DNA of 64,000 nucleotides, taken from assembly GCA_041667185.1 (NCBI GenBank), contig JBAYFM010000007.1, positions 4,296-68,295 of the forward strand, read 5' to 3'. The notes under the pieces are model-generated. The model did not search any database. It worked only from the letters and a program-made list of their open reading frames with translations, and had not been told where the DNA came from. A program made the position numbers and the translations under genes. Shown here piece after piece: positions 1,391 through 63,300 of this stretch. Each line of letters begins with the position of its first letter. Position 1 is the stretch's first letter. The stretch comes from Patescibacteria group bacterium. GTDB taxonomy: Bacteria; Patescibacteriota; Patescibacteriia; SG8-24.

Positions 1391-1456
1391 AGAGTGCAGG
1401 AGTGCAGGAGAGACGGAGCCACGTCGTTCGCGAACGACGTGGCGGAGAGACGATGA
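1391..1456. repeat. Composite intergenic repeat; 24-bp palindrome core CCACGTCGTTCGCGAACGACGTGG at 1419-1442 flanked by GAGTGCAGGAG x2 and GAGACGGAG units
   Basis: Perfect palindrome read directly; same core recurs at 5860, 8062, 28429, 34413, 54245. Confidence 0.8.
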
Positions 1457-1862
1457 AATATCCTAAAAGTGCGACCATAACAAAAGCGGGGGCCTGACGC
1501 TCCCGCTTTCATGATATATATCATTCTTTCGCCCTCATCTTTCACCGACTACCGTATTCTTTCACGGCAATCAAAAACACCTCAGGGAGTCGCGCTCAAG
1601 AAGATTATACTGAGGTGTCACTGAGTCGAAACCCGGTGTACCCTCGGCGTAACCCCCATGCTTGTCGTGAGCGCGATTCTCTGAGGTGTTGGTCAAAGAT
1701 CTCTGCTGACTTCGTAACGTTGTAGATTAGCAGAAGATGCCCCGCGTGTCAAGGGTCTGAATGCCTAATTGTCAATCAATTTAGCGAAAAAATATGCTTA
1801 AACATGGCAATCAAGGCTAAAATCAACGGCTGTCGTGTCAACTGATCGGGTGACAAAAATCG

Positions 1863-2045
1863 GGAGAAGTCATAAAAGAGACGGAGTCAGGGAGAGGCGG
1901 AGTGACGGAGCCATGTCGTTCGCGAACGACGCATCTCCATCTCTCCCTGATCCAATGAACGAGAGAGTGCGGGAGTGAAGGAGTTGGGGAGACCCGACAA
2001 AAACTCCCGCACTCCTGCACTCTCAAACTTCCCTACTCCGTCTCT
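1863..2045. repeat. Degenerate copy of the same repeat family (core CATGTCGTTCGCGAACGACGCATC at 1913-1936; GGAGTGAAGGAGTTGGGGAGACCCGAC / CTCCCGCACTCC arms)
   Basis: Shares GACGGAG, GAGTGCGGGAGTG and GGGGAGACCCGAC...CTCCCGCACT blocks with the 34408-34590 copy. Confidence 0.7.
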
Positions 2046-2249
2046 TCCTCAACCCCCGCCACGATTGACATGGCGGCCTTTTTATGATATATTGCTGGGT
2101 CGAGTTCTTTCACAAGCTTGAGGCGGTGCCGGACAAAAAACTCGCGGGTAGCGGGGCCTTCCAAGGTCGTCCGGGTCAGTGCAGGTTCGACTCCTGCTGC
2201 CGCCTCCAAATCCTTCCATCATCTTCGCCAAGAAGACCGAGGAGGTCTC

Positions 2250-2516
2250 ATGATGAAACCATTGACGCTGCCGCGCGGCGAAACGCCGCAGAGCGCCTAT
2301 GAGCTCGCCATGTCGAGCCAGTCATTTTTCCTCGCGGCGCAGATCGCCCTGCAGTTCAAACTCGGCGGTGACAAGATCCGCCGGGCCGCCAAACTGGCGA
2401 TCCGCCGTTATTTGGACCACGGTCACCCGGATATGGCGCTGAATACGATGGCCATCTTCGGTGTTCAAGACCGGCTCGCGGCATCCAATGAACGATGCTC
2501 GCTGTTGCCGAACTGA
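2250..2516 (+). CDS. Hypothetical small protein (88 aa)
   Basis: ATG preceded by GAGGAGG; no recognisable domain. Confidence 0.3.
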   Translation: MMKPLTLPRGETPQSAYELAMSSQSFFLAAQIALQFKLGGDKIRRAAKLAIRRYLDHGHPDMALNTMAIFGVQDRLAASNERCSLLPN

Positions 2517-2575
2517 TATGATACTAGTGCGAACTGAAACCCTGAACCTGCTGCAAGAAAGAATGGAGACATCTC

Positions 2576-2995
2576 ATGCATCCCATCATCCTGCCAGTCC
2601 AAAGTGATGAGAACCTGAAGGTCTTCGCTTACCCCGAAGGTGGCGGAATCAAGATCGGCCTGCGTGAAGGCGGTTACCTGAACGTCGGACTGTTCCGGGC
2701 GGCCTATCACAAGAAAGAGAGCATCGGCCAGACGCTCACGAGCGGACCAGTAACGGCCCAAGTGATCGCGCGCGGCGACGGGATCGAACTCGTCGTGACC
2801 ATCAAGCTGCCGCACGGCACGATCATCGAGCGGACCATCTCGCCCGCCGTCTGCGACGAGCTCGCTGAGCGCGTCAGTCAGGCCGACATGCTGCTTTACT
2901 CCTACGTCTACGACGACTCGGCGGATGTCGACCACAGCGTCCCGAAACCCCTGCCGCTGGAGCAGGCCGTTATCGACACTGTCGAAAAGGAGTGA
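2576..2995 (+). CDS. Hypothetical protein (139 aa)
   Basis: ATG with upstream GGAGA RBS; no recognisable motif. Confidence 0.4.
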   Translation: MHPIILPVQSDENLKVFAYPEGGGIKIGLREGGYLNVGLFRAAYHKKESIGQTLTSGPVTAQVIARGDGIELVVTIKLPHGTIIERTISPAVCDELAERVSQADMLLYSYVYDDSADVDHSVPKPLPLEQAVIDTVEKE

Positions 2996-3154
2996 TCTCG
3001 AACTTTCGAAGACGAGACACCAAGATCCCTGCTGCGCTTGCAGCGGGGGTCTTTTCATTTTCCGCGCCAGCCGAGGGAGGCCACATTGCCAAAACCCGCG
3101 GCCTAGGATTAACTGGGAGTGCTCTTTATAACCCCAGAACCCCGGAGGTCGGCC

Positions 3155-5820: not shown

Positions 5821-5851
5821 AAAAAACGGGGACCGCGGTCCCCGTCCTTTT
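5821..5851. terminator. Bidirectional terminator (A6-CGGGGACCGCGGTCCCCG-TCCTTTT)
   Basis: Perfect 8-bp GC hairpin with flanking A/T runs; serves convergent genes. Confidence 0.55.
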
Positions 5852-5945
5852 GACTCCGTCACGTCGTTCGCGAACGACGTGGCTTCGTCTCTCCATGACT
5901 CCGTCTCTCATATAACTCCCCTCCCACTACTCCACTCGCCAGCAA
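5852..5945. repeat. Composite repeat copy (core CACGTCGTTCGCGAACGACGTG at 5860-5881 plus GACTCCGTC / CTCCGTCTC units)
   Basis: Same palindrome as 1419-1442, immediately 3' of a terminator. Confidence 0.75.
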
Positions 5946-8026: not shown

Positions 8027-8052
8027 AAGGACCGCCTCGCGGTCCTTTTTTT
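8027..8052 (+). terminator. Intrinsic terminator (AGGACCGCCTCGCGGTCCT + T7)
   Basis: Hairpin plus T-run after the 7009-8022 stop. Confidence 0.65.
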
Positions 8053-8100
8053 CGCCTCCATCACGTCGCTCGCGAGTGACGTGACTCCGTCAAAAATCTC
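8053..8100. repeat. Composite repeat copy (core CACGTCGCTCGCGAGTGACGTG at 8062-8083)
   Basis: Palindromic variant of the family core, again directly 3' of a terminator. Confidence 0.7.
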
Positions 8101-10798: not shown

Positions 10799-13700
10799 AT
10801 GTCGAAACGGCCGCTCCAGGTCAAAAAACAGCCTCAACTCGCCGCTCTGACCGCTAAAAAGACCGACGATATAGTTTTTTGTGCTGAATCAACAGGAAAA
10901 ATAATCTTCGCCAATAAAGCGATGATTAAAACCCTGGGCTACACCGAAACCGAATTACTGGCCAAAAACCTGCAAGATATCGACTTGACGCTGAGCACCC
11001 AGGCCCAACAGCGGCTTTGGACGGAGCTGAAGAAGTCGGGCAGCAAGGTCGTCAGCAGTTCCTATCGCCGCCGCGACGGATCCGTCATCCCGGTCGAGAT
11101 CTCGACGAACTTGTTCCGTCATGGCACTTCGGAATATCTCTGCGGCATCGCCCGCGACCTCAGCGGTCATCTGGCCGCCATGGCCGATCTGGAAATGAAA
11201 GCTCTGATGTTGGACTCGATCGCGGACTCTATCTTCCTGCTCCAGCCGGACGGCGACATCGTCTACGCGAATGCAACCGCCTGCCAAGAACATGGTTATA
11301 CCTGCGCGGAGCTCATCGGCCAAAACATCAAGATCTTGCATGAAAAAAAAGACCTCCCTCAAGTGACCAAAGGACTGAGCAACTTGTCGGCCAAAGGCGG
11401 ACAAGCATCGTTCAGCGGATTCCACTTGCGGAAAGACGGCACCCCTCTGCCCATCGATGTCAACTCGCGCGCCATCAAAATCGGCGACAAACCATTCATC
11501 CTGAGCGTCGTCCGCAACGCGACCGAGCATCGTCAGCTCCAGCGGACGCTGGAACAGGAAAAACTGAGGTTCCGCCAATATTTCGACTTGGCCGCGACAC
11601 TTCTCATCTCCCTGGATCCTAACGGACTCATTCTGGCGGCTAACCGCGAGGCTTGCCGTATCCTGGGCTACGCCCGGGAAACAGACCTCATCGGCCTGAA
11701 CTGGTTCGAGAACTTCGTTCCGAAAAATATCCGCGAGCCGCTCGCCGACTATCAGCGCAAACTTATCGCCGATCGCGCTGACTCCGACGAACGCATCAAC
11801 ATGATCGTTACGCGTCACGGCAAAGAGCGGCTGATCGCCTGGCGCAACACGACCCTGAACGGCCCCGACGGCATGCCGACCATGACCATCAGTTCGGGTC
11901 GCGACATCACGAACGAGCAAGCCGCCCACAGCGAACTTCACCTCCGCTCCCAAGCCCTGGATCTGGTCGGGGAATCGGTCTTCATCCACGATCTCAACGG
12001 CAAGATTATTTTCGTCAACCGCGAGGCCTGCCTGGAGCGCGGTTACAGACCTGGCGAACTCATCGGACGGAACATCGGCACCGACATCGACGCGCCCGAA
12101 AGCAGTGCGCTCCTGAAAACACGCATTAAGAAGCTGCTGAAAACCGGCGAATCTTCTTTCGAAGTGCAGCACCGCCGCCGCGATGGATCGATTTTCCCGG
12201 CCAGCATCCACGCCCGCATCATCAAGATCGGCGGCGTGGACATGGTCCTGTCCTCCGTCCGCGACATCAGCGAGTCGCGCGAAATGGAAAATGCGCTCCG
12301 AAACGAACGGGAAAAATTCAAGAACTATTTTGAACTCGCCTCCATCATCCTGGTGGCCCTTGATCTCAAAGGGCACATCTCCGCCATCAACCGGCGCGGC
12401 GCCGAACTCTTCGGTCAGACCCCGGAAAAAATGGTCGGTCTGGAATGGCCGCAGATTTCCCTGTCGAAGGAAACACAATTGAAAATGCGGGAGTACCTGC
12501 AAAAATTACTGGCCGGACAAGTCCAGACGACGGACGAAGAGATCAATATTGCGACGCCTTCTGGCGAACGCCTGATCGCGTGGCGAAGCTCGCTCTTGCG
12601 CGATAAACACGGACAGATACTCGGCATCCTGGGATCCGGCCTCGACGTCACCGAGAGACGCCGGTTGGAAAACGAAACCGCCGCAAAAAACCGGGCTCTC
12701 GAAGTCGTCAACCGAGGCGCGGATGCGATCATGCGGGCAACCAACGAACAAAAGTTATTAACGGAGGTCTGCGACATTATCTGTCGAATCGGCGGCTACC
12801 GCCTGGCCTGGATCGGCCGCAAGTTGGCAGACAAGAACCAAACGATCGAAGCGGCAGCTTCCGCCGGAGCAGAACGAGACTACACCGTGAATCTCGGCGT
12901 CTCCTGGGGAAACAACAAACTCGGCCAGACCCCGATCGGTCTGGCGTTGCGCTCCGGCCGCCGGCAGATCGCCTTGGACCTGTTGAAAAATGATGCCTTC
13001 AAACCCTGGTCTGACCGGATCAAGCAGCATAATCTGACCGCTGATCTGGCGCTGCCGATCAAGATCGGCGACAAAGTTGAACTGGCCTTGGCCATCTATT
13101 CCAACGAGGCCGATCCATTCAACCAGAACGAGATCGAGTTGTTGGAACGGCTGGCCGCGAACCTGGCTTTTGGCATCACGAACCTCCGCACTCGTCTGGC
13201 CCAACAAGAAGCCGAGCGCACCGGCCGAGAGCTGGCCGAAAAATACGGCTTCATCATGGAGAACGCCAACGATGTTTTTTATTGGATCGCCGCGGATGGA
13301 CGGATCATCACCATTAGCCCCGGCACCAAACGCTATGCCCTGGACGCCGATCAGATGGTCGGCCACTCATTCCTCGAGTACGCCTGGGACGAAGACCGTG
13401 AATGGGTCGCCAAGGACTTCGTGGCTCTGCTGCGCGACAAAAACACGCATACGATCAAATGGCGCATTCGGGACGGACACGGCCAGCCGGTCTGGATGGA
13501 AACCGTCTCCCGCGTCGTACCCACCGACAAACCGAACAAACCCGCCGTCGTCGGCGTGTTGCGCGACATCACCGAACGCCACAATGCCGAGATGGAAAAA
13601 GCGCGCTACGACGCCATTCATCGGCTGCTGACCGAGTTGTCTTCGTTGATCCTCTCGACCACGGTCTCCAAGGTCGACACCGTGATTGACAAGATCATCG

Positions 13701-16700
13701 CGCGCGTCGGCGTTTTTGCCGGCGTCGATCGAACGTATGTGGTGACCCTCTCCGAACAGGACACCCCTCTGGCCAGCATCCGCGAATGGCGCGCCGCCGG
13801 CATCAGACCGATCACCGATAAGATCGAGGGCCTGCCTTCCGATAAAACCCCGCTCTGGGTCCAACAGCTCCTGAACGGCGAAACCCTGATCGTCAACGAC
13901 TCCGGCAAAATACCGGCTAATCAGGCCGCTGAAAAAACACTGTCGACAATGCAGGAAGCCAGATCATACGTCGGTCTGTCGCTCAAATCGCGCGGCAGCG
14001 TGATCGGCTTCGTCGGTATGAGCACGGTTCGAACGCAACGAACCTGGTCGGAAGCCGATCTCTTTCTCCTGGAACAATTGGCCAACAACATCACTGGTCT
14101 CCTCGAATGGTCCCGGGCTCAGAAAAAAACCACCGAAAGCGAGCAGCGTTTCCGCGAACTGTCCGACCTGGCGCCCCAGGCGATCATCGAGCTCGATCTG
14201 CAGGGTCGGCTGGCCTATTGCAACAAGGCCGGACTCAAAATGATGGGCTATGACCATGAGCCCTCAAGAACGCTGACCATCGCCGACTTGATCGCTCCTT
14301 CGGATCTGGCCAAGGTCTCCAAAAATATCGGCTTACGGCTGGAAGACAAAATCAACACCGGCAATGAGTATCTAGGTCGCCGTCAAGACGGCTCGACCAT
14401 ACCGATTCTGGCCTACACCAGCCCGATCATCAAGAACGGCAAGCCCGTAGGTCTGCGCGGCGTGATCTTCGATCTGACCGATATTAAAAAAACCGAAGCG
14501 CACCGAGACTACCTGGCCACTTTTCCCGGCAACAACCCCTCGCCGATCATCGAATTCAACCTCGACGGCGCCATCACTTATCTCAACCCGGCCGCTTCCA
14601 GACTGCTGACCCCGCTGCGCGTCGGACTCAATATTCATGAGGTCCTACCGGAAGTCGAATCGATTCTGAACGAAAACGCGCCGGAAACAACTGCGGTTGA
14701 AGTGGTCAGAAACAATAGCTGGTACTTGGCGCTGACCAGCCGCTCGGATCAATACAGCGGCATCCGGTTGTACATGATGGACATTACCAGCCTCAAACAG
14801 CTGGAAGCCAAGCTGACTGAAAGCGAACGACGCTATCGCGCCATCCTCGAAAACACTTCGGATGTAATTTATTCGACAGACCTCAAAGGCATCATCACTT
14901 ACGTGAGTCCGCAGGCGGCCCAATTCGGTTTCGATCCGGAAAAGATCATCGGTCACACCTTGCTGGAATTCATCTCTCCCGAAGACCGCGAACTCGTCAC
15001 CAAAGAATTCGAGCGCGCGATCACCTCGCGACACGGATTCGCCTTGCCGACGCTCCAATTCCGCCTCGTCAATCCCGAAGGCAAGATCTACTGGGTCGAA
15101 GAAAACGGCCGCGCCGTCGTTGATCCGAAAAAAGGCGCGACTGGAGCTTTCGGCGTCATGCGCGACATCACCGAACGCAAAAAGAACGAGGATCTGATCG
15201 TCAAAAAGACGGTCGCGGAAAAACTTATCTCCAACATCTCGACTGAATTCCTGAAAGCCGCTACCGAAAATTTCGACCCGATCGTCAACAACGGCCTGAA
15301 TAAACTGGCGCGGCTGACAAATGCTGATTGCGCCAAAATCTACCTGATATCCGATGATTCCAAACGATTGATCGAGCGCTTCATCGCCAATGAAGACGAC
15401 GCGGCCGGACACGAGCGTCGCGAATTCCAGCTGACCGACTTCCCCTGGATCTCCTCCAACTTCAACCGCCGCGACGTTATCCAGGTCAGCGATATCAACC
15501 AGCTGCCGAGTGAAGCTCGGCCAGAGCTCAAACGCCTCTGCAACGAACGCCTGACCTCGACTATTTTCACGCCTATTTTGGCTGGTTATCGGGTCATCGG
15601 ACTCGTCGGTTTTTCGACTTACAAAGGGATCTATACCTGGCCGCCGGAGGATGCCATCCTGCTGAAAATGTTCGCCGATATCTACGCCAACGCCCACGTC
15701 CGCCGAGAAACGGAACGGAGTCGCTTGCGGCGCTCGGAAGCGGAAAAGATCATCACCGATCTGACGGTCAAGTTCGCCTCGGTCGAAGAATCGGAACTTA
15801 ACCGCGTGTCTTCGACAGCCCTCGAAAAGATTGCCTTGTTCGCCGGCGCTGAACGTGCCGCTTTCGCCAAATTCGGACCGCAGAGAACCAATCTGTCCTG
15901 GATCCAGGAATACCACCGACCGAATCTGTCGCCAATCATCGCTACCATGCAGAATCTGCCTCTTGCGCCGGGTGATTGGCTTTTCGGCGAGATTGACTCC
16001 GACACAACCGCCACTCTGACCGATATTTCCCATCTGTCGGCCAATGTCGACGCGCGGACGATCCGCGTCAGCCCCGAAATCGGAGCTTTCGCAGCCGCGC
16101 CGATAAAACAAGGTGGGCGGGCGATCGGCTTCATCGGCCTCTACGCCACTGGTCCGAAATACTGGTCTGAAGATGAGACAAATTTATTGACCAACCTGGG
16201 CAAAATCATCGGCGACGCGCTGGAAAAAGCCGCGGCCAACGCCAAGGTCCGCGAGGCTGACTTGCTCCGCCGCAAATTCGTCCAAATCGTCTCCCATCAA
16301 CTCCGGACGCCGCTGACCGCGATCCGCTGGAACCTCGAAGCCCTGCTGACCGACGAAGTCGGCAAACTCCAACCGGAACAAAAAAGCATCATCCGCCTGG
16401 CCCACGAATCCGAGGTTGAGGTCATCAGTCGGCTCGGCCAAATGCTCACCGCGCTCGACATTGAAGAAGGCCGGGCGCTCCTGAATCCCGAACCGATGGC
16501 TCTCGATGCTTTGTGGGACTCGGTCCGTTCGTCCCTCATTCCCCGTTGCGCCAGCAAAGAACTGACCCTGACCTACAAACCGCCATCCAAACCGCTGCCA
16601 GCGATCAAAGCCGATCCGGAAAAAATCCGCGAGGTCCTGACGACCTTGGCAGATAACGCCATTGCCTATACCAACAACGGCGGCAGCATTGAAGCGCGGC

Positions 16701-16957
16701 TGGAGAATCATGGCACTTTCATTCGTTTCAGTATCAAGGATACCGGCGTCGGCATACCTAAAGCAGAGCAGCTCCGGATATTCTCCCGTTTCTACCGAGC
16801 TTCAAACGCCCCGACCATGCTGCCGAACGCCTCGGGACTCAACCTCTCCATCGCCAAATACTTCATAGAACAGCACGGCGGACAAATCGGTTTCGAAAGC
16901 CGCGATGGCCAAGGTTCAACTTTCTGGTTCGAATTGCCGCTGGTAGAAAACAGATGA
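10799..16957 (+). CDS. Giant cytoplasmic multi-PAS/GAF sensor histidine kinase (2052 aa), no receiver domain
   Basis: Many PAS-like repeats, HisKA H-box (QIVSHQLRTPLTAIRW), HATPase_c (DTGVGIP...GLNLSIAKYFIEQHGGQI...GSTFWFELP); AT-rich promoter region upstream. Confidence 0.85.
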   Translation: MSKRPLQVKKQPQLAALTAKKTDDIVFCAESTGKIIFANKAMIKTLGYTETELLAKNLQDIDLTLSTQAQQRLWTELKKSGSKVVSSSYRRRDGSVIPVEISTNLFRHGTSEYLCGIARDLSGHLAAMADLEMKALMLDSIADSIFLLQPDGDIVYANATACQEHGYTCAELIGQNIKILHEKKDLPQVTKGLSNLSAKGGQASFSGFHLRKDGTPLPIDVNSRAIKIGDKPFILSVVRNATEHRQLQRTLEQEKLRFRQYFDLAATLLISLDPNGLILAANREACRILGYARETDLIGLNWFENFVPKNIREPLADYQRKLIADRADSDERINMIVTRHGKERLIAWRNTTLNGPDGMPTMTISSGRDITNEQAAHSELHLRSQALDLVGESVFIHDLNGKIIFVNREACLERGYRPGELIGRNIGTDIDAPESSALLKTRIKKLLKTGESSFEVQHRRRDGSIFPASIHARIIKIGGVDMVLSSVRDISESREMENALRNEREKFKNYFELASIILVALDLKGHISAINRRGAELFGQTPEKMVGLEWPQISLSKETQLKMREYLQKLLAGQVQTTDEEINIATPSGERLIAWRSSLLRDKHGQILGILGSGLDVTERRRLENETAAKNRALEVVNRGADAIMRATNEQKLLTEVCDIICRIGGYRLAWIGRKLADKNQTIEAAASAGAERDYTVNLGVSWGNNKLGQTPIGLALRSGRRQIALDLLKNDAFKPWSDRIKQHNLTADLALPIKIGDKVELALAIYSNEADPFNQNEIELLERLAANLAFGITNLRTRLAQQEAERTGRELAEKYGFIMENANDVFYWIAADGRIITISPGTKRYALDADQMVGHSFLEYAWDEDREWVAKDFVALLRDKNTHTIKWRIRDGHGQPVWMETVSRVVPTDKPNKPAVVGVLRDITERHNAEMEKARYDAIHRLLTELSSLILSTTVSKVDTVIDKIIARVGVFAGVDRTYVVTLSEQDTPLASIREWRAAGIRPITDKIEGLPSDKTPLWVQQLLNGETLIVNDSGKIPANQAAEKTLSTMQEARSYVGLSLKSRGSVIGFVGMSTVRTQRTWSEADLFLLEQLANNITGLLEWSRAQKKTTESEQRFRELSDLAPQAIIELDLQGRLAYCNKAGLKMMGYDHEPSRTLTIADLIAPSDLAKVSKNIGLRLEDKINTGNEYLGRRQDGSTIPILAYTSPIIKNGKPVGLRGVIFDLTDIKKTEAHRDYLATFPGNNPSPIIEFNLDGAITYLNPAASRLLTPLRVGLNIHEVLPEVESILNENAPETTAVEVVRNNSWYLALTSRSDQYSGIRLYMMDITSLKQLEAKLTESERRYRAILENTSDVIYSTDLKGIITYVSPQAAQFGFDPEKIIGHTLLEFISPEDRELVTKEFERAITSRHGFALPTLQFRLVNPEGKIYWVEENGRAVVDPKKGATGAFGVMRDITERKKNEDLIVKKTVAEKLISNISTEFLKAATENFDPIVNNGLNKLARLTNADCAKIYLISDDSKRLIERFIANEDDAAGHERREFQLTDFPWISSNFNRRDVIQVSDINQLPSEARPELKRLCNERLTSTIFTPILAGYRVIGLVGFSTYKGIYTWPPEDAILLKMFADIYANAHVRRETERSRLRRSEAEKIITDLTVKFASVEESELNRVSSTALEKIALFAGAERAAFAKFGPQRTNLSWIQEYHRPNLSPIIATMQNLPLAPGDWLFGEIDSDTTATLTDISHLSANVDARTIRVSPEIGAFAAAPIKQGGRAIGFIGLYATGPKYWSEDETNLLTNLGKIIGDALEKAAANAKVREADLLRRKFVQIVSHQLRTPLTAIRWNLEALLTDEVGKLQPEQKSIIRLAHESEVEVISRLGQMLTALDIEEGRALLNPEPMALDALWDSVRSSLIPRCASKELTLTYKPPSKPLPAIKADPEKIREVLTTLADNAIAYTNNGGSIEARLENHGTFIRFSIKDTGVGIPKAEQLRIFSRFYRASNAPTMLPNASGLNLSIAKYFIEQHGGQIGFESRDGQGSTFWFELPLVENR

Positions 16958-36760: not shown

Positions 36761-36784
36761 TAAAAAACCTCCGCAGGCGCGGAG
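36761..36784 (-). terminator. Terminator for the minus-strand hypothetical gene
   Basis: Minus-strand CCTCCGCGCCTGCGGAGG + T6. Confidence 0.6.
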
Positions 36785-36792
36785 GCTCAAGA

Positions 36793-37221: not shown

Positions 37222-37331
37222 CTGAACCTCCTTATTTCCAAAGATCTGCCGCCATCTCAACACGGACCAGGCCGACAGTCAAGCGCGCTGACCGATAAAA
37301 AAGCCGTCCCTGACAAGAGACGGCGGCGGTT

Positions 37332-38603: not shown

Positions 38604-38680
38604 GGGCGTATAGCTCAGTTGGTTAGAGCGTCACACTGATAATGTGAAGGTCGATGGTTCGAATCCATCTACGCCCACCA
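38604..38680 (+). tRNA. tRNA-Ile (anticodon GAT), CCA encoded
   Basis: GGGCGTATAGCTCAGTTGGTTAGAGCG...CTGATAA anticodon loop...GGTTCGAATCC T-arm...TACGCCCACCA. Confidence 0.9.
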
Positions 38681-38798
38681 GAGAGATTAAAATGTTTGCC
38701 GATTATTGCGAGGCAAGCGCGGAAACCGCAGGTTGGCAAGCCGCCTGTTCAAAGGCTTACGCGACCATAATTTCTCGAGAGCGTGTCGGTCCAAAATT

Positions 38799-39332: not shown

Positions 39333-39362
39333 GACAGCGGAAGTAAATCGGTTTTCCGTGAC

Positions 39363-39437
39363 GCCGAGGTAGCTCAGTGGTAGAGCAGAGGACTGAAAAT
39401 CCTCGTGTCGCCAGTTCAATCCTGGCCCTCGGCACCA
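39363..39437 (+). tRNA. tRNA-Phe (anticodon GAA), CCA encoded
   Basis: GCCGAGGTAGCTCAGTGGTAGAGC...CTGAAAA loop...GTTCAATCC...CCTCGGCACCA. Confidence 0.9.
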
Positions 39438-39470
39438 CGGAAAGCCGATTTTTTGATAAGATGACGTCAT

Positions 39471-39546
39471 CGGGGCGTGGCCTAATGGCTAAGGCACTTG
39501 CTTTGGGAGCAAGGGATTGAGAGTTCGAGTCTCTCCGCCCCGACCA
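39471..39546 (+). tRNA. tRNA-Pro (anticodon TGG), CCA encoded
   Basis: CGGGGCG acceptor, anticodon stem CTTGC/GCAAG with loop TTTGGGA, T-arm GTTCGAGTC, 3' CGCCCCGACCA. Confidence 0.85.
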
Positions 39547-39573
39547 AATTTCATATGAATATCGGTTTCATCT

Positions 39574-39649
<76 letters not shown>

Positions 39650-39657
39650 CTGAAAAC

Positions 39658-44245: not shown

Positions 44246-44261
44246 ATGAGAAGTTGGGGAG

Positions 44262-44440
44262 TTGGGAAGTGCTGGAGTGCGGGAGTCCTGAAGATTTGAA
44301 ATCAAGCTTCAGCACTCCAGTACTTCAAAACTTCTGCACTTCAGAAAAAGTTGAGGAGTTGGGAAGTGCGGGAGTGCTGGAGTGACGAAGACATCTTGTC
44401 TACCCAACTCCCTCACTTCCGCACTCTCCAACTCCTAAAG
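44262..44440. repeat. Two adjacent imperfect hairpin repeats built from GAGTTGGGAAGTGC(G/T)GGAGTG units
   Basis: GAAGTGCTGGAGTG...CACTCCAGTACTTC and GAGTTGGGAAGTGCGGGAGTG...CACTTCCGCACTCTCCAACTC inverted repeats. Confidence 0.6.
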
Positions 44441-44573
44441 AGTCTACCACTTGCCCTAAATTCGCTCAATATAGCCCCGATACAAGCCCGACAAAATGCT
44501 CTTTTTAAAGCAGCATCCGAAGACGGAGCCGCTTGGTAGCTCGGACTGGCTAAGAAGTTGGGAAGTGCAGGAG

Positions 44574-44613
44574 CACTCCAGCACTCCAGCACTCCAGCAC
44601 TCCAGCACTCCGA
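44574..44613. repeat. Microsatellite: 8-bp unit CACTCCAG x5
   Basis: Perfect tandem octamers read directly. Confidence 0.85.
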
Positions 44614-54211: not shown

Positions 54212-54325
54212 TAAGGGAGAGACGGAGATACGGAGAGACGGAGTCACGTCGTTCGCGAGCGACGTGATGTGACGTGATCAAGGAATGATGAAGCACTCCA
54301 GCACTCCAGCACTACCCTTTTAACA
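54212..54325. repeat. Composite repeat copy (GGGAGAGACGGAGATACGGAGAGACGGAG + core CACGTCGTTCGCGAGCGACGTG at 54245-54266 + CACTCCAG x2)
   Basis: Full-length member: GACGGAG units, palindrome, then CACTCCAG octamers. Confidence 0.8.
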
Positions 54326-54986: not shown

Positions 54987-57221
54987 ATGTCCAAGAACAA
55001 CCGCGCGAAAAAGAACGGTTCCAAACCCAAACGCCGCGAACCCAGCGCTCCGAAAATCAACCCGCTGGCCAAAAAAGAACTGGCCGCGCTCTTCCTGTTC
55101 GTCGTCTCTGTCATCTGCTTGTTGTCTTTCTTTGATCTCGCCGGCGCGGCTGGCCGTGGTATCGACTCTTTCTTCGCGGCGCTGTTCGGCATTGATAAAT
55201 TCCTCATTCCCTTCGTCGTTCTCGGCCTCGCCGGCCGCATCGTTTTCCCGGAAAAATTCTCCTTCCGCCTGCCGACCTGGCTCGGACTCTTCCTGTTCGT
55301 GACCGGCTGGGGCGGACTCCTCGACGTGATCATGTTCCGCACCGTCGACGCCATCCTGATCGTCGACAACGTTTCGCGCGCCGGCGGTTTCGCCGGACTG
55401 CTCCTGGCCTACCCGCTGCTCGCGGTCGCCGGCTTCTGGGCCGCGCTGATCATCCTGGTCATGACCGTCATCATCGCGCTCGTACTCACTTTCAACGTCT
55501 CGTTGCACGAACTTTCCGCGAAACTCGCCGGCGTCCGCCATCTGTCCTGGCCCTGGCCTTTCGGACACCGGATCCCGGCCGACCCGGGCGCGCCAGCCAT
55601 TGAACCGGCCGGAGAATTCAAGAAACGCCAGCTGAACCAGTCCGAAACGGACGGGGAAACCGCTGTCACTACTCCCCGCGAAGCCAAGTACGCCGAACCG
55701 CCGGTCAAACTCAGAAAAAAATATCCGCCGGTCGCCGTCCCGACCGACCTGCTGGAGAACCGTTTCGAAAAACCGACCGCCGGCGACATCAACGGCCGCC
55801 TGAACGTCATCAAAAAAACGCTGGAGAATTTCGGCATCCCCGTCGAGATGGGCGAATTCAGCGTCGGTCCGACCGTCACCCAGTTCACTCTGAAGCCGGC
55901 CGAGGGCATCAAACTGACGCGCATCACCTCGCTCTCGAACGACCTGGCGCTGTCCCTGGCCGCCCACCCGATCCGCATCGAAGCGCCGATCCCGGGCAAG
56001 TCGCTCGTCGGCATCGAAGTGCCGAACCAGACCGTCGCGGTCGTGGGTCTCCGCGAAGTCCTCGAATCCAATGCCTTCCAGACCCGCCGCACCAACCTGA
56101 CCGTCTGTCTCGGCAAGGACGTCTCCGGCAAACCCTGGGTCGCGGACCTCGGCAAGATGCCGCACCTGCTCGTCGCCGGCGCCACGGGTTCGGGCAAGAC
56201 CGTCTGTCTGAACTCCGTCATCCTCTCGCTCCTCTATCAGAACAGCCCCGACGACCTGCGGCTGATCCTCATCGATCCGAAGCGCGTCGAGATGCCGGTC
56301 TACAACGGCGTCCCACACCTACTCACACCAGCCATCACCGAAGTACCGAAGATCATCAACGCCCTCAAATGGTGCATCCGCGAAATGGACCGCCGCTTCG
56401 AACTCCTGTCGCAGAAAGGCTGCCGCGACATCGGCGCCTACAACTCTCGCGTCGATGAAAAAATGCCTTACATCGTGGTGCTCATCGACGAGCTCGCCGA
56501 CCTCATGGTCGCTTCGGCCTCCGAGGTCGAAGCCTCGATCATCCGCCTGGCCCAGATGGCCCGCGCCGTGGGCATTCACCTGATCGTCGCCACGCAGCGC
56601 CCGTCGGTCGACGTCATCACCGGCCTCATCAAAGCGAACATCACGAGCCGCATCGCATTCTCCGTCGCTTCCGTGACCGACTCGCGCACCATCCTCGACA
56701 CGGCCGGCGCCGAAAAACTCGTCGGCCGCGGCGACTCCCTCTTCCAGACCCCGGAACTCTCGAAACCGAAACGCATCCAGTGCTGCTATGTGAGCGACTC
56801 CGACACGCGGCGCGTCGTGGATTTCCTGATCTCCAAACTCGAGGAGCCGGCCGATTACGACGACACCGTGACGGCCAAGCCCGGCCACGGCGGTCCGAAC
56901 GGCAACGGCGGCATGGATTTCGGCTATAACAACGACGGAGACGACGAATTATTGGACGAAGCCAAGGAAACCGTGGTCAAAGCCGGCAAAGCCTCGGCCT
57001 CTTATCTCCAGCGCCGCCTGAAGATCGGCTACGCTCGCGCCGCCCGACTCTTGGATTTGCTCGAAGAAAGGGGTATCATTGGCCCTGGAGACGGCGCGAA
57101 GCCGCGCCAAGTGCTCGTGACCCCGATCAACGATGTTGACGGCGTCCATGTCATTGATCCGGAGGATAAGGAGGAAACCTCCGCTGAAGCTGATGAAGAC
57201 GACCAAAGCGAACAATCCTGA
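54987..57221 (+). CDS. ftsK: DNA translocase FtsK
   Basis: N-terminal TM helices, Walker A VAGATGSGKT, LIDELADLM, HLIVATQRPSVDVITGLIKANI, C-terminal winged-helix gamma domain (ASYLQRRLKIGYARAARLLDLLEERGIIG). Confidence 0.9.
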   Translation: MSKNNRAKKNGSKPKRREPSAPKINPLAKKELAALFLFVVSVICLLSFFDLAGAAGRGIDSFFAALFGIDKFLIPFVVLGLAGRIVFPEKFSFRLPTWLGLFLFVTGWGGLLDVIMFRTVDAILIVDNVSRAGGFAGLLLAYPLLAVAGFWAALIILVMTVIIALVLTFNVSLHELSAKLAGVRHLSWPWPFGHRIPADPGAPAIEPAGEFKKRQLNQSETDGETAVTTPREAKYAEPPVKLRKKYPPVAVPTDLLENRFEKPTAGDINGRLNVIKKTLENFGIPVEMGEFSVGPTVTQFTLKPAEGIKLTRITSLSNDLALSLAAHPIRIEAPIPGKSLVGIEVPNQTVAVVGLREVLESNAFQTRRTNLTVCLGKDVSGKPWVADLGKMPHLLVAGATGSGKTVCLNSVILSLLYQNSPDDLRLILIDPKRVEMPVYNGVPHLLTPAITEVPKIINALKWCIREMDRRFELLSQKGCRDIGAYNSRVDEKMPYIVVLIDELADLMVASASEVEASIIRLAQMARAVGIHLIVATQRPSVDVITGLIKANITSRIAFSVASVTDSRTILDTAGAEKLVGRGDSLFQTPELSKPKRIQCCYVSDSDTRRVVDFLISKLEEPADYDDTVTAKPGHGGPNGNGGMDFGYNNDGDDELLDEAKETVVKAGKASASYLQRRLKIGYARAARLLDLLEERGIIGPGDGAKPRQVLVTPINDVDGVHVIDPEDKEETSAEADEDDQSEQS

Positions 57222-57964: not shown

Positions 57965-58015
57965 GATACATAGATATAGAGAGTGCGGGAGTGAAGGAGT
58001 GCGGGAGCGCAGAAC
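57965..58015. repeat. Short repeat-family fragment (GAGAGTGCGGGAGTGAAGGAGTGCGGGAGCG)
   Basis: GAGTGCGGGAGTG units as in the 1981/44370 copies. Confidence 0.5.
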
Positions 58016-61714: not shown

Positions 61715-61810
61715 AGGGTCATTGCGAGGCCGAAGGCCGAAGCAATCCCGTCGGTTGCCAGGCGGAGATCCCTCAGGCCTAAGCCCTCGGGATGATCCGC
61801 CCCGGACGGA

Positions 61811-62053
61811 TCATTTAACCAGGAACGGGATCAGCGCCATCTGCCGCGCCCGCTTGATCGCCTGGGCGAGCATGCGCTGATGCTTGGCGCAGACGCCGCT
61901 GCGGCGGCGCGGCACGATCTTGCCGTAAGACGACAGGAACCGCTTCATGCCGTTGATATTCTTGTAGTCGATGGCCATGACGCCGTGAATGCAGAACACG
62001 CAATGGCGCTGCTGGTTCATCAGGCCGGACTTCTTTTGATTCGATCTCATCAT
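61811..62053 (-). CDS. rpsR: 30S ribosomal protein S18
   Basis: CVFCIHGVMAIDYKNINGMKRFLSSYGKIVPRRRSGVCAKHQRMLAQAIKRAR matches S18. Confidence 0.9.
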   Translation of the reverse strand: MMRSNQKKSGLMNQQRHCVFCIHGVMAIDYKNINGMKRFLSSYGKIVPRRRSGVCAKHQRMLAQAIKRARQMALIPFLVK

Positions 62054-62059
62054 AAGGGT

Positions 62060-62494
62060 CTAAAAGGGAATGTCTTCAACCTTGATCTCGTCGTCTCCGC
62101 CGGTCTGCACTGCCGCGGCCGGAACCTTCTCCTGGCGGGGAGCCGCCGAGGTCTGGCCGTTGCCGCGATCCAACATGATGACATTGTCAGCCACGATCTC
62201 CGTCCGGTTGCGCTTCTGGCCGTCCTGGCCGGTCCACTCGCGGGTCTGCAAACGACCCTCGACGTAAACCTTGCGCCCCTTGGTGAGATATTGCCCGCAG
62301 ATCTCCGCGAGCTTGCTCCAGGCGACGATGTTGTGGAATTCCGCCTTCTCCTGGCGCTGGCCGGACGCGTCGGTCCAGGAATGATTCGTAGCCACGCCGA
62401 AAGAAGCGACGTTCTGGCCGTTGGTGGTGGTCCTGATTTCGGGGTCCCTGGTCAGATTGCCGATGATCATGGCCCGATTGAGATTCATGCTCAT
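62060..62494 (-). CDS. ssb: Single-stranded DNA-binding protein
   Basis: MNLNRAMIIGNLTRDPEIR OB-fold N-terminus, acidic C-terminal tip DIPF. Confidence 0.9.
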   Translation of the reverse strand: MSMNLNRAMIIGNLTRDPEIRTTTNGQNVASFGVATNHSWTDASGQRQEKAEFHNIVAWSKLAEICGQYLTKGRKVYVEGRLQTREWTGQDGQKRNRTEIVADNVIMLDRGNGQTSAAPRQEKVPAAAVQTGGDDEIKVEDIPF

Positions 62495-62571
62495 ATTTGG
62501 GTGAGTTCATCCGGCGCGCGGCGCGGCGATCGTGGGGGTCGCCTGGTCCGCTGGTCGGCTGGTTAGCCCGT

Positions 62572-63042
62572 TTAGAGGATGTCGTCGGTCAGGATCTGCT
62601 CCAGTTTCTTATCCAGTTCGGCGATGCTCATCTTGTCCTTGGCCGGCTGTTGCTGCTGGATGGTGGCGGGCTGGGACGCAACCTGGCCCTGTGGCCGCCC
62701 TTCGTAGCGCTCATGCCGCGGTTCTTCCTCGATGAGCGACGGGATCTTGGTGATATGCGGATCGCGGACTATGATCAAGTGGCGCAAGATGTCGGTCGAC
62801 ATGCGCAAAAGCTCGTTGAGTTTGATCGTCACCGCCGGTTCGGCTTCGTAGAAGAACAGGACGTAATTCCCGTTGCGGGCGTTCTTGATCGGATACGCGA
62901 GCTTGCGCCGACCGAGATCGTGAGTCTCCTTGATCGTGCCTCCAGCCGAGGTCACGATGCCAGCCACCTTGTCGGAAAGCTGCTTCAGCTCCTCCTCGGT
63001 GTACTTTGCCGGGATGATGAATAAAAGTTCGTACTGCTCCAT
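62572..63042 (-). CDS. rpsF: 30S ribosomal protein S6 (with extended C-terminal tail)
   Basis: MEQYELLFIIPAKYTEEE...GRRKLAYPIKN matches S6; conserved rpsF-ssb-rpsR order. Confidence 0.9.
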   Translation of the reverse strand: MEQYELLFIIPAKYTEEELKQLSDKVAGIVTSAGGTIKETHDLGRRKLAYPIKNARNGNYVLFFYEAEPAVTIKLNELLRMSTDILRHLIIVRDPHITKIPSLIEEEPRHERYEGRPQGQVASQPATIQQQQPAKDKMSIAELDKKLEQILTDDIL

Positions 63043-63189
63043 AATCTTTGGCCCTACTCGCGCGGTTTTGGACCGCTCATTCGCGGTTCCTGCCGTCGCG
63101 GATCAGTCAGACTTGACAGACCTTGGAAATAAGGCTTAACTGCGCCTTAATCAGCGCGTTGGCCTAGATTAACACAGATATCCCCAAGA

Positions 63190-63300
63190 TGGCAAGACGG
63201 GACGAAGTTGCGGAGTCATGGAGTTACGGAGATGCGAAGTCAGAACTATTATATTCTCCCTGACTCCGTCTCTTTCTTACTCCCCTACTCCCTGCTAAGA
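63190..63300. repeat. Degenerate repeat-family copy (GACGAAGTTGCGGAGTCATGGAGTTACGGAGATGCGAAGTCAG...CCCTGACTCCGTCTC)
   Basis: GGAG/CTCC-rich units with inverted arms; between the rpsF promoter region and the next gene. Confidence 0.5.

Follow-up and report, generated by a model that had tools for sequence, protein, structure and literature searches.

A solo 24-bp palindromic insertion unit of the candidate phyla radiation probably overlaps a lineage-specific octamer minisatellite in a Patescibacteria genome

The dispersed repeats in a 64-kb stretch of Patescibacteria DNA (hereafter the window, taken at its full length) are best explained by the overlap of two repeat systems: a selfish 24-bp palindromic element of the candidate phyla radiation (CPR), present here as solo copies, and a lineage-specific octamer minisatellite. 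We put the probability of this reading at roughly 0.6. The original prediction had described a single composite family built around the palindrome, which does not agree with our results: the palindrome is a CPR-wide 24-bp module, and the octamer arrays occur in this lineage only.

Palindromes and octamer arrays in the window

A pattern search allowing up to three mismatches recovered seven copies of CACGTCGYTCGCGARCGACGTG in the window, each adjoining arrays of 8-nt units with GGAG or CTCC. Three copies are perfect (1420-1441, 5860-5881 and 54245-54266) and four are mutated, with one mismatch at 8062-8083, two at 28429-28450 and 34414-34435, and three at 1912-1933. No match occurred in any of 100 dinucleotide-preserving shuffles of the window (0 expected by chance), confirming that the predicted dispersed palindrome is real. 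The positions previously assigned to the copies were correct within 1-2 nt, and several already took in an extra outer base pair. An eighth match with three mismatches (55925-55946), inside the ftsK ORF and without repeat flanks, was set aside as a chance near-match. With the outer base pair included, the copies are as follows.

1419-1442, no strand: copy 1; perfect 22-mer of the T/A variant between C and G; CGGAG on either side; 46 nt past the stop of a VanW-domain ORF
1911-1934, no strand: copy 2; decayed, three mismatches; between a left-hand GGAG and a right-hand CTCC array
5859-5882, no strand: copy 3; 22-mer without mismatch, T..G as outer pair; in the spacer of the convergent protease and DHH genes, adjoining terminator hairpin 5826-5845
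8061-8084, no strand: copy 4; one mismatch, C/G variant; 15 nt past terminator 8027-8047, upstream of smc
28428-28451, no strand: copy 5; flanked by two sigma-factor genes; two mismatches, each a C>T change that leaves a G-T pair
34413-34436, no strand: copy 6; two mismatches to the degenerate pattern, 3 of 11 base pairs broken
54244-54267, no strand: copy 7; mixed variant (T..G); upstream of ftsK, with four GGAG octamers ahead of it

At three of the seven copies, a terminator-like hairpin stands immediately before the palindrome (5826-5845, 8027-8047 and 34377-34399), so that the placement 3′ of terminators stands for these, while its attribution to most copies was overstated. Copy 6 lies past the NAPRTase terminator (34377-34399) and is followed by octamer arrays and then by the 16S rRNA gene. 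The region around copy 2 (1877-1950) folds with a predicted dG of -32 kcal/mol (z -2.1). CGGAG-like pentamers flank both sides of five of the seven copies. The window contains no GIY-YIG gene, and its palindrome copies are solo.

Tandem units in the window had a period of 8 throughout as determined by TRF, and runs of at least three GGAG motifs at exact 8-nt spacing were found nine times, compared with 0.01 in shuffles; the short tandem units noted earlier are thus genuine. All of the unit-only copies listed before were present, one of them (30153-30187) falling within the trmD ORF. The long imperfect hairpins that had been proposed were borne out for the octamer modules (z -5.1 to -8.0), with the most stable fold at 44350-44440 (dG -52 kcal/mol, z -8.0) and others at 1955-2040 (z -6.2) and 44255-44330 (z -5.1). 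The octamer features are listed below.

1389-1418, + strand: GGAG octamer array abutting copy 1 (TRF and GGAG spacing)
1877-1910, + strand: GGAG octamer array abutting copy 2 (TRF and GGAG spacing)
1963-2035, no strand: octamer hairpin module (GAGTGCGGGAGTG...GGGGAGACCCGAC...CTCCCGCACTCC); dG -42.6 kcal/mol, z -6.2; aligns with 34466-34545
5883-5925, - strand: octamer array directly next to copy 3, reading CTCC on the + strand
28406-28427, + strand: ACGGAGAG octamers abutting copy 5 (TRF)
29873-29910, - strand: octamer array without palindrome, past terminator 29829-29857
30153-30187, + strand: octamer units within the trmD ORF; in frame, adding 8 aa (24 nt) compared with solved TrmD structures
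34437-34590, no strand: GGAG array, hairpin module and 4.8 tandem copies (100% identity) of a 16-nt unit, in this order (TRF and fold)
44250-44440, no strand: two octamer hairpin modules without palindrome (z -5.1 and -8.0)
44556-44612, no strand: AGTTGGGAAGTGCAGGAG, then (AGCACTCC)x5 at 100% identity (TRF and GGAG spacing)
54216-54243, + strand: GGAGAGAC octamers abutting copy 7 (TRF and GGAG spacing)
54292-54313, - strand: (AGCACTCC)x2.8 array (TRF)
57981-58007, + strand: GAGTGCGG octamer array without palindrome (TRF and GGAG spacing)
63202-63300, no strand: GGAG array facing a CTCC array, no palindrome (TRF and fold)

Within the last of these, ...GCGAAGTCAG... looks like the flanks of copies 3 and 5 with no palindrome between them.

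No octamer arrays were found in 120 palindrome-bearing CPR loci. The arrays are a separate, lineage-specific, hairpin-forming minisatellite, distinct from the palindrome, and their expansion would be due to slippage of GGAG/CTCC units. Because they are rich in CGGAG/CTCCG, the pentamer that is duplicated at tRNA-Ser ends, they may attract the palindrome. Some blocks of array and palindrome seem to have been copied later as larger units.

Distribution and insertion signature of the palindrome

The palindrome is not private to this genome, and it behaves as a 24-bp insertion unit across the CPR. A search of one-genome-per-species contigs with the 22-mer matched at least 120 loci, and the same 22-mer was present in at least 116 loci of many CPR/Patescibacteria lineages with 30-66% GC. 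Among the matches listed, the exceptions were Agromyces (L024) and Thermoleophilaceae (L119), every other label being CPR, unspecific or "Gammaproteobacteria"; in 4 of the 17 loci with this last label, the encoded proteins share 66-74% identity with proteins from loci labelled as CPR. A search of 2.9 million viral contigs gave no palindrome match. In literature searches, we found no earlier description of the palindrome, its docking at tRNA genes or its link to a nuclease.

The unit measures 24 bp, and in it a variable but complementary outer base pair surrounds CACGTCG-Y-TCG/CGA-R-CGACGTG. Complementary bases occupy -1/+1 in 92% of copies, with all four Watson-Crick pairs represented, and positions 8/15 are T-A in 64 copies, C-G in 53 and mixed in one; a G-C form also exists. 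The unit is flanked by direct repeats of 4-5 nt of the form YNN(N)R, within a weakly palindromic target consensus, G-S-[YNNR]-S-C. Exact repeats flank 63 of 118 copies, compared with about 4.6 expected, comprising 52 of 4 nt and 11 of 5 nt (4.1 and 0.46 in shuffled flanks); 26 further copies have repeats with one mismatch, and 29 have none even at one mismatch. One element is nested inside another with a CGAG duplication (L053, 7607-7656), and insertions were also found in -35-like TTGAC boxes and terminator loops. Copies lie within long open frames in 28% of cases, compared with 74% for random positions.

The palindrome occupied the N73/CCA junction of a tRNA gene in exact register in 28 of 124 copies. 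Its first two bases then form the CA of the tRNA CCA, and no other register was seen. The outer base was C in all 28 docked copies, and N70-73 plus CCA recurs past the palindrome in most of them. At non-tRNA sites with an exact duplication, 40 of 44 had no adjacent CCA and are therefore ordinary targets. The earlier view that the element inserts at gene ends holds only in a loose sense: targeting is sharpest at the 3′ end of tRNA genes, and in the window the target is the CGGAG pentamer within octamer arrays.

We also compared orthologous sites. Relatives with 64-79% amino-acid identity have neither palindrome nor arrays at two orthologous spacers, and L121 likewise at one. The orthologue of the copy 3 spacer in L124 has no palindrome; at the copy 4 site, L124 and L125 retain the terminator and promoter, but the palindrome is missing together with some 150 bp of its surroundings, and it is likewise absent from L126, which is more diverged. 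No near-identical genome pair with a clean 28-29-bp presence/absence was found, and the next relatives are too diverged for boundaries to be placed. The duplication-like direct repeats and the relatives' sites without the palindrome indicate that it is a dispersed intergenic repeat of insertion type rather than a product of chance.

The linked GIY-YIG nuclease and a proposed mechanism

In a search of neighbouring genes, a GIY-YIG ORF was the only protein family clustering beside the palindrome. By tblastn, 10 of 120 loci had this ORF, separated from the palindrome by 61-134 nt and in every case downstream of both tRNA and palindrome, and a search seeded with the nuclease returned the same arrangement of tRNA, palindrome and nuclease on one strand in all five protein clusters looked up. 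The protein is a stand-alone nuclease of 85 aa encoded 16-170 nt downstream of the palindrome on the same strand; it matches Pfam PF01541 (E 3e-12 to 3e-14), has invariant catalytic residues, is nearest to SLX1 and UPF0213 proteins among solved structures, and belongs to a family of 238 clusters at 90% identity. The inner palindrome varies with the nuclease lineage, and the outer CACGTC..GACGTG is retained. Of the 15 loci with a linked nuclease, 10 found from the palindrome and 5 from the nuclease, only 2 had a second palindrome past the ORF, and the right boundary of the cassette is therefore undefined. In L049, the ORF lies between two copies of tRNA end, palindrome and tRNA end, as after integration of a circle.

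We infer that this nuclease mobilises the palindrome and that the coding form of the element family carries it downstream. The element would enter DNA at YNN(N)R sites and leave a 4-5-nt duplication; at a tRNA end, its own C plus CA would restore CCA, and the duplicated N70-73 with the original CCA would then follow the palindrome. A structure-specific nuclease may recognise the palindrome as a hairpin or cruciform, which would account for the constant covariation of its two halves. In the extruded form, each 12-bp arm would resemble a terminal repeat and both element-flank junctions would lie side by side, so that cuts by the nuclease could allow both exit and entry of the unit; fill-in and ligation by the host would then produce the duplication. 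Characterised GIY-YIG enzymes produce 1-2-nt 3′ overhangs or single nicks rather than 4-5-nt staggers, and they are not known to join DNA; host repair must therefore be invoked. Copies would decay after insertion. The nuclease could also sit at tRNA and palindrome for a reason unrelated to palindrome movement, such as read-through expression.

Alternative explanations and related systems

It is rather unlikely that the palindrome is instead an RNA or single-stranded DNA hairpin under selection, serving tRNAs and mRNAs, for example, as a signal for 3′ processing, termination or stabilisation. As a mimic of the 12-bp acceptor/T minihelix, it would have spread by its usefulness, with the nuclease riding on tRNA read-through. 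The 12-bp stem with two covarying pairs and occasional G-T intermediates, the predicted RNA hairpin (dG -19.5 kcal/mol, z -3.7), the exact register at CCA, the 3′ UTR-like positions of window copies beside terminators, and the nuclease ORF, always on the tRNA strand and at times only 16 nt downstream, are all consistent with this. However, a processing signal leaves unexplained the direct repeats at the 40 non-tRNA sites, the insertions in TTGAC boxes and terminator loops and the nested element; moreover, many tRNAs in the same loci have no palindrome, and individual copies decay. A classical MITE, made of the abutted terminal inverted repeats of a DDE-transposase IS (IS1380-, ISH3- or IS5-like) and mobilised in trans with the GIY-YIG ORF as an unrelated passenger, is decidedly unlikely. 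IS1380-family ends begin with CC and their duplications are 4-5 bp; the inverted-repeat structure, the duplications and the weakly palindromic target fit as well. Against it, a search of 940 kb of CPR DNA for longer elements with the 11-nt halves at their ends found none, the window showed no transposase, and only the GIY-YIG ORF clusters beside the palindrome. A 24-bp duplex cannot pair its two ends in one complex unless extruded as a cruciform, and binding of a dimeric transposase needs no covariation of the halves. The MITE-like reading of the original prediction survives in part, as an inverted-repeat unit with duplications, but the search turned up no parent IS sharing its ends, and the partner candidate is a nuclease. 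An IS with CCACGTCG... termini in a CPR genome, if found, would favour the MITE explanation.

The perfect 22-bp dyad conserved across phyla, and the bracketed nuclease ORF of L049, might suggest a protein operator, a site-specific recombination (att/dif-like) site or a DNA-uptake signal, and CPR genomes encode competence machinery. We nevertheless regard such roles as very unlikely. There is no conserved neighbouring gene set or recurrent regulon; the hairpin-like covariation of the halves (one mixed copy in 118) is needless for a symmetric dimer; single half-sites are not above chance and copies lie mostly outside long open frames, which speaks against uptake; direct-repeat flanks and copy decay do not fit; and multiple recombination sites per genome would destabilise it. 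Mobilisation as a REP/BIME-type element by a RAYT (IS200-like tyrosine transposase) is extremely improbable. The palindrome is, like REPs, BIMEs and REPINs, a short GC-rich extragenic hairpin often found past genes and terminators, and CGTC-tagged REPs with CCA tails and without a known transposase exist (PMC3733652). It is, however, a perfect dyad with no unpaired GTAG/CGTC tag (CGTC lies within the stem), occurs singly rather than in inverted doublets, is flanked by direct repeats and, among the matches listed, is almost confined to the CPR. Neither the window nor the surroundings of any copy yielded a RAYT gene; the context in other genomes suggests the small GIY-YIG nuclease in place of the IS200-like partner first envisaged. 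An assembly or library artefact has a practically negligible probability. Palindromes can break or confuse short-read assemblies, and contig L123 ends at copy 3, but the same sequence occurs in MAGs of many projects and assemblers, internal to contigs and in exact tRNA-end register, it is almost confined to the CPR among the matches listed, and three contigs from independent assemblies of the window's strain are 100% identical.

Organelle genomes harbour GC-rich palindromic clusters of about 20-40 bp that are non-coding, intergenic and often beside tRNA genes; they are considered mobile and have short target duplications, with no dedicated transposase identified. The palindrome described here is likewise very short, GC-rich, non-coding, dispersed intergenically and often beside tRNA genes. 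The organelle clusters differ in being mitochondrial, in sequence, in not being locked to N73/CCA and in having no GIY-YIG link, whereas here one 22-mer is common to a whole bacterial superphylum. They comprise the yeast mitochondrial GC clusters and the Neurospora "PstI palindromes" flanking tRNA genes (PMC4478555 and works cited there). In CPR rRNA genes, GIY-YIG ORFs occur in non-intron insertions, and short ORF-less insertions lie at stem-loop tops or bases (PMC11270868). Like GIY-YIG homing endonuclease genes, whether free-standing or encoded in insertions, the nuclease studied here is a small selfish gene in or beside stable-RNA genes that has spread among lineages. Unlike them, its product is a bare 85-aa catalytic domain without a DNA-binding domain, and the fixed palindrome that accompanies it is found by itself as well, flanked by duplications, at many unrelated sites; in classical homing, a gene is copied into one cognate site and no duplications arise. 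The palindrome shares with MITEs its inverted-repeat termini, target-site duplication, lack of an ORF, multiple decaying copies and a presumed trans-acting enzyme, but at 24 bp with no internal sequence it is several-fold shorter than described bacterial MITEs. The octamer arrays, not the palindrome, recall Rickettsia palindromic elements, which also occur in frame within core genes, as the array in trmD does; those elements are 100-150 bp long, in contrast to the 8-nt tandem units.

Under the two-system reading, the palindromes of this genome would be solo, non-coding copies of a very small selfish insertion element that has spread through the CPR, and exaptation of copies after insertion is possible and compatible with this explanation.

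Palindrome copies and octamer arrays in the window

A mismatch-tolerant search of the window with the degenerate pattern CACGTCGYTCGCGARCGACGTG recovered all seven palindrome copies named in the original prediction. At up to three mismatches, the pattern occurred at eight sites, compared with none in 100 dinucleotide-preserving shuffles. The eighth site (55925) lies within ftsK without repeat flanks and was set aside as a chance near-match.

Palindrome copies in the window (start position; match to the degenerate pattern)
1420 (copy 1); exact match
1912 (copy 2); three mismatches
5860 (copy 3); exact match
8062 (copy 4); one mismatch
28429 (copy 5); two mismatches
34414 (copy 6); two mismatches
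54245 (copy 7); exact match in the mixed T..G form, hence an imperfect palindrome

All seven copies are solo, without a linked nuclease gene, and the genes adjoining them are ordinary, mutually unrelated housekeeping genes. When oriented alike, six of the seven have ...GAGACG(G/A)AG-Y as one flank, and in five a CGGAG-like pentamer borders the palindrome left and right; tRNA-Ser ends show a duplication of this pentamer as well. An identical imperfect pair, CGAAG ... CGGAG-TCA, is found at copies 3 and 5, and the array at 63233-63247, which lacks a palindrome, reads GCGAAGTCAG; on these grounds, some array-plus-palindrome blocks were probably duplicated as larger pieces. Terminator-like hairpins were found directly 5′ of three of the seven copies, and thus not of most of them as had been proposed. 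A Pfam scan of ORFs in the window detected no transposase, integrase, or nuclease. Rfam gathering scores were reached by the 16S rRNA and four tRNAs alone; no curated RNA family matched the palindrome or the repeats, and none of the four tRNAs carries a palindrome. An independent assembly of the same strain (contig L123, from Logan SRR6484324) starts at window position 5855, 5 nt before copy 3, and the element therefore fragments short-read assemblies.

Two features of the surrounding genome were also observed. The 16S rRNA gene (34950-36455) is followed, over 36456-39650, by ORFs and tRNA genes and not by a 23S gene, and the rRNA genes are therefore unlinked; beyond the ORFs that come first are tRNA-Ile (at 38604), an MgtC-family ORF, tRNA-Phe, tRNA-Pro, and tRNA-Gly. 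In addition, three big PAS/GAF-rich sensor histidine kinases lie within 15 kb, a sensory investment that is unusual for a genome of this kind.

Sensor histidine kinases in the window
10799-16957; 2052 aa
18618-20252; 544 aa
21108-25085; 1325 aa

The mosaic of short tandem units described around the palindromes was borne out: all arrays have a period of 8, with GGAG (CTCC on the other strand) at each eighth base. Runs of at least three octamer units occurred nine times in the window against 0.01 in shuffles. Where GGAG arrays stand opposite CTCC arrays, they fold into long hairpins, which bears out, for the octamer modules, the long hairpins of the original prediction.

Predicted octamer hairpins in the window
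44350-44440; dG -52 kcal/mol, z -8.0
1955-2040; z -6.2
44255-44330; z -5.1

These arrays are a system separate from the palindrome. [quoted passage not shown] An origin as footprints of palindrome excision was unsupported, as their 3-nt spacers (AGA, ATA, and TGA) differ from the element termini. Two arrays consist of perfectly identical tandem units (16 nt × 4.8 at 34509-34585 and 8 nt × 5 at 44572-44611), which indicates very recent growth by slippage, and length variation between strains would be expected. Within trmD (29930-30625), three GGAG octamer units (24 nt, 30153-30187) lie in frame and correspond to an 8-residue insertion, DGDTKKRN, relative to solved TrmD structures, recalling the in-frame Rickettsia palindromic elements. 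In Moranbacteria MAGs (L018 at 2223, L093 at 1293, and L068 at 3352 and 4159), the palindrome likewise lies within bigger repeats that are specific to the lineage, such as ...CCCACCCCTCA..TCAT-palindrome-..CAAGCAG...GCTCCCC; the window is thus not the sole case of a palindrome nested in local repeats.

Distribution and insertion signature of the palindrome

Extending the count to relatives and beyond, as the original prediction had suggested, we searched for the exact 22-mer in 185,579 species, each represented by one genome, and found it in at least 120 loci. The palindrome is present in at least 116 loci beyond the window and is not private to this genome. By our own estimate, fewer than one chance occurrence is expected over 596 Gb. 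The labels among the matches listed were Uhrbacteria, Moranbacteria, Peribacteria/Peregrinibacteria, Doudnabacteria, Saccharibacteria, Woesebacteria, Wirthbacteria, Kerfeldbacteria, Buchananbacteria, Minisyncoccota, Parcubacteria, and "Patescibacteria group", and the GC content of the listed loci ranged from 30 to 66%. The remaining listed loci had unspecific or "Gammaproteobacteria" labels, apart from Agromyces and Thermoleophilaceae (67-73% GC), which clearly fall outside; in both, the palindrome lies in coding-looking DNA and fits chance. Seventeen listed MAG contigs are titled "uncultured Gammaproteobacteria" (including L003, L008, L010, L011, L032, L041, and L044); in four of these 17, proteins are 66-74% identical to those of CPR-labelled loci, which makes the label doubtful, and these public labels look wrong. 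Among 2.9 million viral contigs (IMG/VR), the 22-mer had no match, leaving a viral reservoir unsupported.

Flank statistics were compiled from 118 non-redundant copies. The bases flanking the 22-mer are complementary in 92% of copies (C-G 64, T-A 24, A-T 13, G-C 8, and T-G 5), with all four Watson-Crick pairs represented, and positions 8/15 are T-A in 64, C-G in 53, and mixed in 1, a G-C form having also been seen. These pairs make the unit a dyad of 24 bp in which two pairs covary. Such covariation is characteristic of either a hairpin or the copying of one half from the other, and not of a site for a symmetric protein dimer.

Outside the dyad, bases -5 to -2 recur at +2 to +5 with 66-68% agreement per position, compared with about 25% at other offsets. 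Exact direct repeats of 4 nt were found in 52 copies and of 5 nt in 11, against 4.1 and 0.46 with shuffled flanks; the target-site duplications that had been suggested for checking were thus detected in 63 of 118 copies where about 4.6 were expected, and 26 more copies have them at one mismatch. A 6-bp duplication was rejected because the outer positions match in only 35-38% of copies, compared with 66-68% for the inner four. We also rejected the idea that the outer pair is target-derived, or is made P-nucleotide-like as the complement of the adjacent flank base, in view of counter-examples (L014, L011, L002, and L036) and the low match frequency at -1/+6 (0.35). The direct repeats have the form YNN(N)R (CAAG/CTTG 12, CAGG/CCTG 10, TAAA/TTTA 9, CGGAG/CTCCG 8, and CCCA/TGGG 5), avoid self-complementarity at the centre, and are set in a weakly palindromic target consensus, G-S-[YNNR]-S-C. 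One palindrome is nested inside another with a CGAG duplication (L053). Full copies are depleted from long ORFs and lie mostly beyond long open frames, and extra copies within the same loci are often slightly mutated, as in the window. Taken together, the duplications, nesting, position, and mutated copies are the marks of a putative insertion element that decays after landing.

The window most resembles an Uhrbacteria MAG, with 66-76% nucleotide identity in genes. Three contigs that share a 337-aa protein with the window proved 100% identical to it, and the other relatives found were 64-79% identical in this protein; a near-identical strain with a clean presence/absence difference was not found between these two groups. 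In the 64-79% relatives, the orthologous spacers of the copies at 5860 and 8062 contain neither palindrome nor arrays, and the terminator and promoter flanking the 8062 site are still present in two of them (L124 and L125). A separate 1.9-kb relative from the metagenome scan (L121) also lacks both at one orthologous spacer. Candidate empty sites, which the original prediction had proposed looking for, are thus seen at these two spacers, while divergence bars base-level definition of their boundaries. For copy 7, the spacers could not be aligned with those of the syntenic Uhrbacteria locus L072.

Docking on tRNA genes and the linked GIY-YIG nuclease

Using ARAGORN, we found that 28 of 124 palindromes begin with the CA of a tRNA's CCA, and no other tRNA-palindrome offset was found within 40 nt. 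The outer base is C in all 28, so that C plus CA rebuilds CCA. Downstream of the docked palindrome come a G and then a second copy of N70-73, which is 4 nt long or, as with CTCCG at tRNA-Ser, 5 nt, followed in about 20 of the 28 by the original CCA. The docked tRNAs are mostly tRNA-Ser (11) and tRNA-Trp (6), and because a tRNA 3′ end is predictable, they serve as built-in controls with a predicted empty site. Targets other than tRNAs, which include -35-like TTGAC boxes and terminator loops, are genuine as well. Since 40 of 44 such sites with exact duplication have no adjacent CCA, CCA microhomology was rejected as a general targeting rule. Separately, palindrome-free tRNA trailers in five loci (L002, L029, L033, L060, and L064) contain a recurring CTTCGC/GCGAAG motif, for example TTCGACTTCGCTCACTTCG and TTCTGCTTCGCAAGCTTCGCAGAA, which may represent another family of small repeats at the ends of CPR tRNAs.

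Clustering of ORFs over the 120 listed loci yielded one family close to the palindrome, at a median distance of 56 nt. This family is an 85-aa ORF, as read in locus L049. By tblastn, it is present in 10 of the 120 listed loci, 61-134 nt 3′ of the tRNA and palindrome and on the tRNA strand, and is absent from the window; weaker homologues adjoin the palindrome in three further loci. Outside the window, the ORF matches the GIY-YIG catalytic domain (PF01541) with E-values of 3e-12 to 3e-14, which pass the curated cut-off. Seven residues are invariant in 14 sequences (Y5, Y7, Y19, G21, R29, H33, and E53), comprising the GIY and YIG motif residues plus the conserved Arg, His, and Glu positions. The nearest solved structures are SLX1 structure-specific endonucleases and UPF0213 proteins, both weak matches (E ~1e-3). 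At 85 aa, the protein is the catalytic domain alone, with no separate DNA-binding domain. The family comprises 238 clusters at 90% identity, of which the few with a source organism name are CPR, and 124 representatives at E ≤ 1e-10; identity is 56-87% between hosts labelled Peribacteria, Peregrinibacteria, and Uhrbacteria, and NCBIfam yielded no named family for it.

Starting instead from the protein, we looked up five clusters (P0015, P0016, P0053, P0100, and P0101), and in all five found a tRNA or tRNA end, an in-register palindrome, the duplication plus CCA, 16-171 nt, and then the ORF. The linkage is thus reciprocal, holding when seeded from either side. Cassettes were found at the 3′ ends of four kinds of tRNA (Ser, Trp, Asp, and Gln), whose common features are limited to N73-CCA and the tRNA fold. 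Towards its centre, the palindrome varies with nuclease lineage (CGGTCGCGACCG with P0100 and CAGATTAATCTG with P0101), while the outer CACGTC...GACGTG is constant. Other palindromes at the same tRNA and nuclease sites share only the outer (C/T)ACGTC...GACGT(G/A), such as CACGTCAGATTAATCTGACGTG and GATACGTCATTCGCAAATGACGTATC (L136 390-411; L134 1808-1829 and ~1835-1860; L058 ~2747-2775), and so belong to a wider family of ACGTC-ended palindromes.

A tandem unit consisting of the right part of the palindrome, the duplicated tRNA end, CCA, and 9-12 nt is repeated in two to three copies with a period of 29-32 nt in independent lineages (L049 4223-4290, L103, L130, L076, and L085), lying between tRNA-Ser and the GIY-YIG ORF in L103 and L130. 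The repeat starts exactly at the dyad centre in L049 and within the right half in the others, which suggests that these repeats may be left behind as the palindrome is repeatedly broken and repaired.

Nature of the element and implications

The REP/BIME reading of the original prediction can be set against the definition of a REP as a palindrome that is imperfect and bears at its 5′ end an unpaired tetranucleotide tag (GTAG or CGTC) that signals cleavage (PMC3733652). Here the dyad is perfect, CGTC is part of the stem, where it pairs with GACG, and all variable positions are paired. Elements of the REP/BIME type are arranged mainly as inverted doublets around a spacer, whereas these palindromes are single in the window and the 120 listed loci; such elements also insert without target duplication, whereas exact 4-5-nt repeats accompany 63 of 118 copies. 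The reading fails on tag, organisation, and duplication alike, and the repeat-flanked RAYT (IS200-like Y1 transposase) gene that would go with it was found neither among the Pfam-scanned window ORFs nor as a family clustering beside the palindrome in the 120 listed loci. The MITE-like reading fares better in part: two 12-nt inverted halves, no ORF, dispersed copies (seven in the window, plus at least 116 other loci), and a short duplication (4 nt in 52 copies, 5 nt in 11, and CGAG at the nested copy) all agree with it, whereas the size does not, and no parent transposase-encoding IS with the same termini was found. In a scan of 940 kb for palindrome halves as ends of an autonomous IS, no pair of halves bounded a longer element; all hits were chance matches, pieces of partial tandems, or a single nested copy. 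An operator would be expected beside recurrent neighbours; the GIY-YIG ORF is the only recurrent family in the 120 listed loci, and the window neighbours are unrelated. As for an uptake signal, isolated 11-nt halves occurred only as one-mismatch chance matches, and the depletion of full copies from long ORFs also speaks against it.

Homing-endonuclease cassettes resemble the present system in nuclease fold and in their address at stable RNA genes, whereas solo palindromes with duplications belong to the palindrome system alone, and the DNA-binding specificity domain of GIY-YIG homing endonucleases is absent from the 85-aa protein. The closest parallel is with the mobile GC-rich palindromes in mitochondria of fungi; these likewise flank tRNA genes (PMC4478555). 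No description of the system emerged from literature searches by sequence and by concept (CPR with palindrome, MITE, GIY-YIG, or tRNA). The element groups with an already known kind, the mobile palindromic repeats, and there is a substantial chance that the nuclease-driven mechanism is new in kind.

We tentatively propose, with a probability of about 0.4, that the 24-bp palindrome and the 85-aa SLX1-like GIY-YIG nuclease constitute a new kind of mobile element, in which a structure-specific nuclease, neither transposase nor recombinase, moves a cruciform-forming mini-palindrome via its two hairpin arms, targets tRNA N73|CCA across the CPR, and seeds solo copies genome-wide. This reading draws on distribution, flank statistics, tRNA register, nuclease linkage, the decay of copies, and their absence at orthologous sites in relatives. 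The nuclease would recognise the extruded palindrome, in which each 12-bp arm would act as a terminal repeat with both junctions held together; extrusion would get round a geometric obstacle, namely that the two ends of a 24-bp duplex cannot meet in one complex. Staggered target cuts, followed by host fill-in and ligation, would yield the duplication, and selection for a pairable hairpin would give the covariation. To our knowledge, known GIY-YIG enzymes neither make 4-5-nt staggers nor join DNA, which counts against a nuclease mechanism. A further weak point is the right end of the coding cassette, as a second palindrome lies just beyond the ORF in only two of 15 nuclease-linked loci, after the same tRNA tetramer or pentamer. 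A role of the hairpin at tRNA 3′ ends, in processing or in separating tRNA from nuclease mRNA, may coexist with mobility.

In the text of PMC11270868 covered by a term search, GIY-YIG ORFs and short ORF-less insertions are reported, as unexplained, in CPR rRNA genes, and neither "palindrom" nor "tRNA gene" is mentioned. Those insertions and the nuclease cassettes at tRNA genes may be one phenomenon.

If the proposal is true, this would be the shortest insertion element with target duplication known to us in bacteria, and its 85-residue nuclease, paired with a defined 24-bp DNA partner, would inform the study of structure-specific GIY-YIG enzymes and possibly provide a compact tool. For CPR genomics, the palindrome breaks contigs, as in the same-strain assembly, inflates spurious ORFs, and could be mistaken for a regulatory site. 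It would also be a sequence marker common to a superphylum otherwise poor in common non-coding sequence. Finally, it would bear on tRNA 3′-end formation in the CPR: the element rebuilds the encoded CCA in 28 tRNAs, and the outer C in every docked case argues that an encoded CCA matters.
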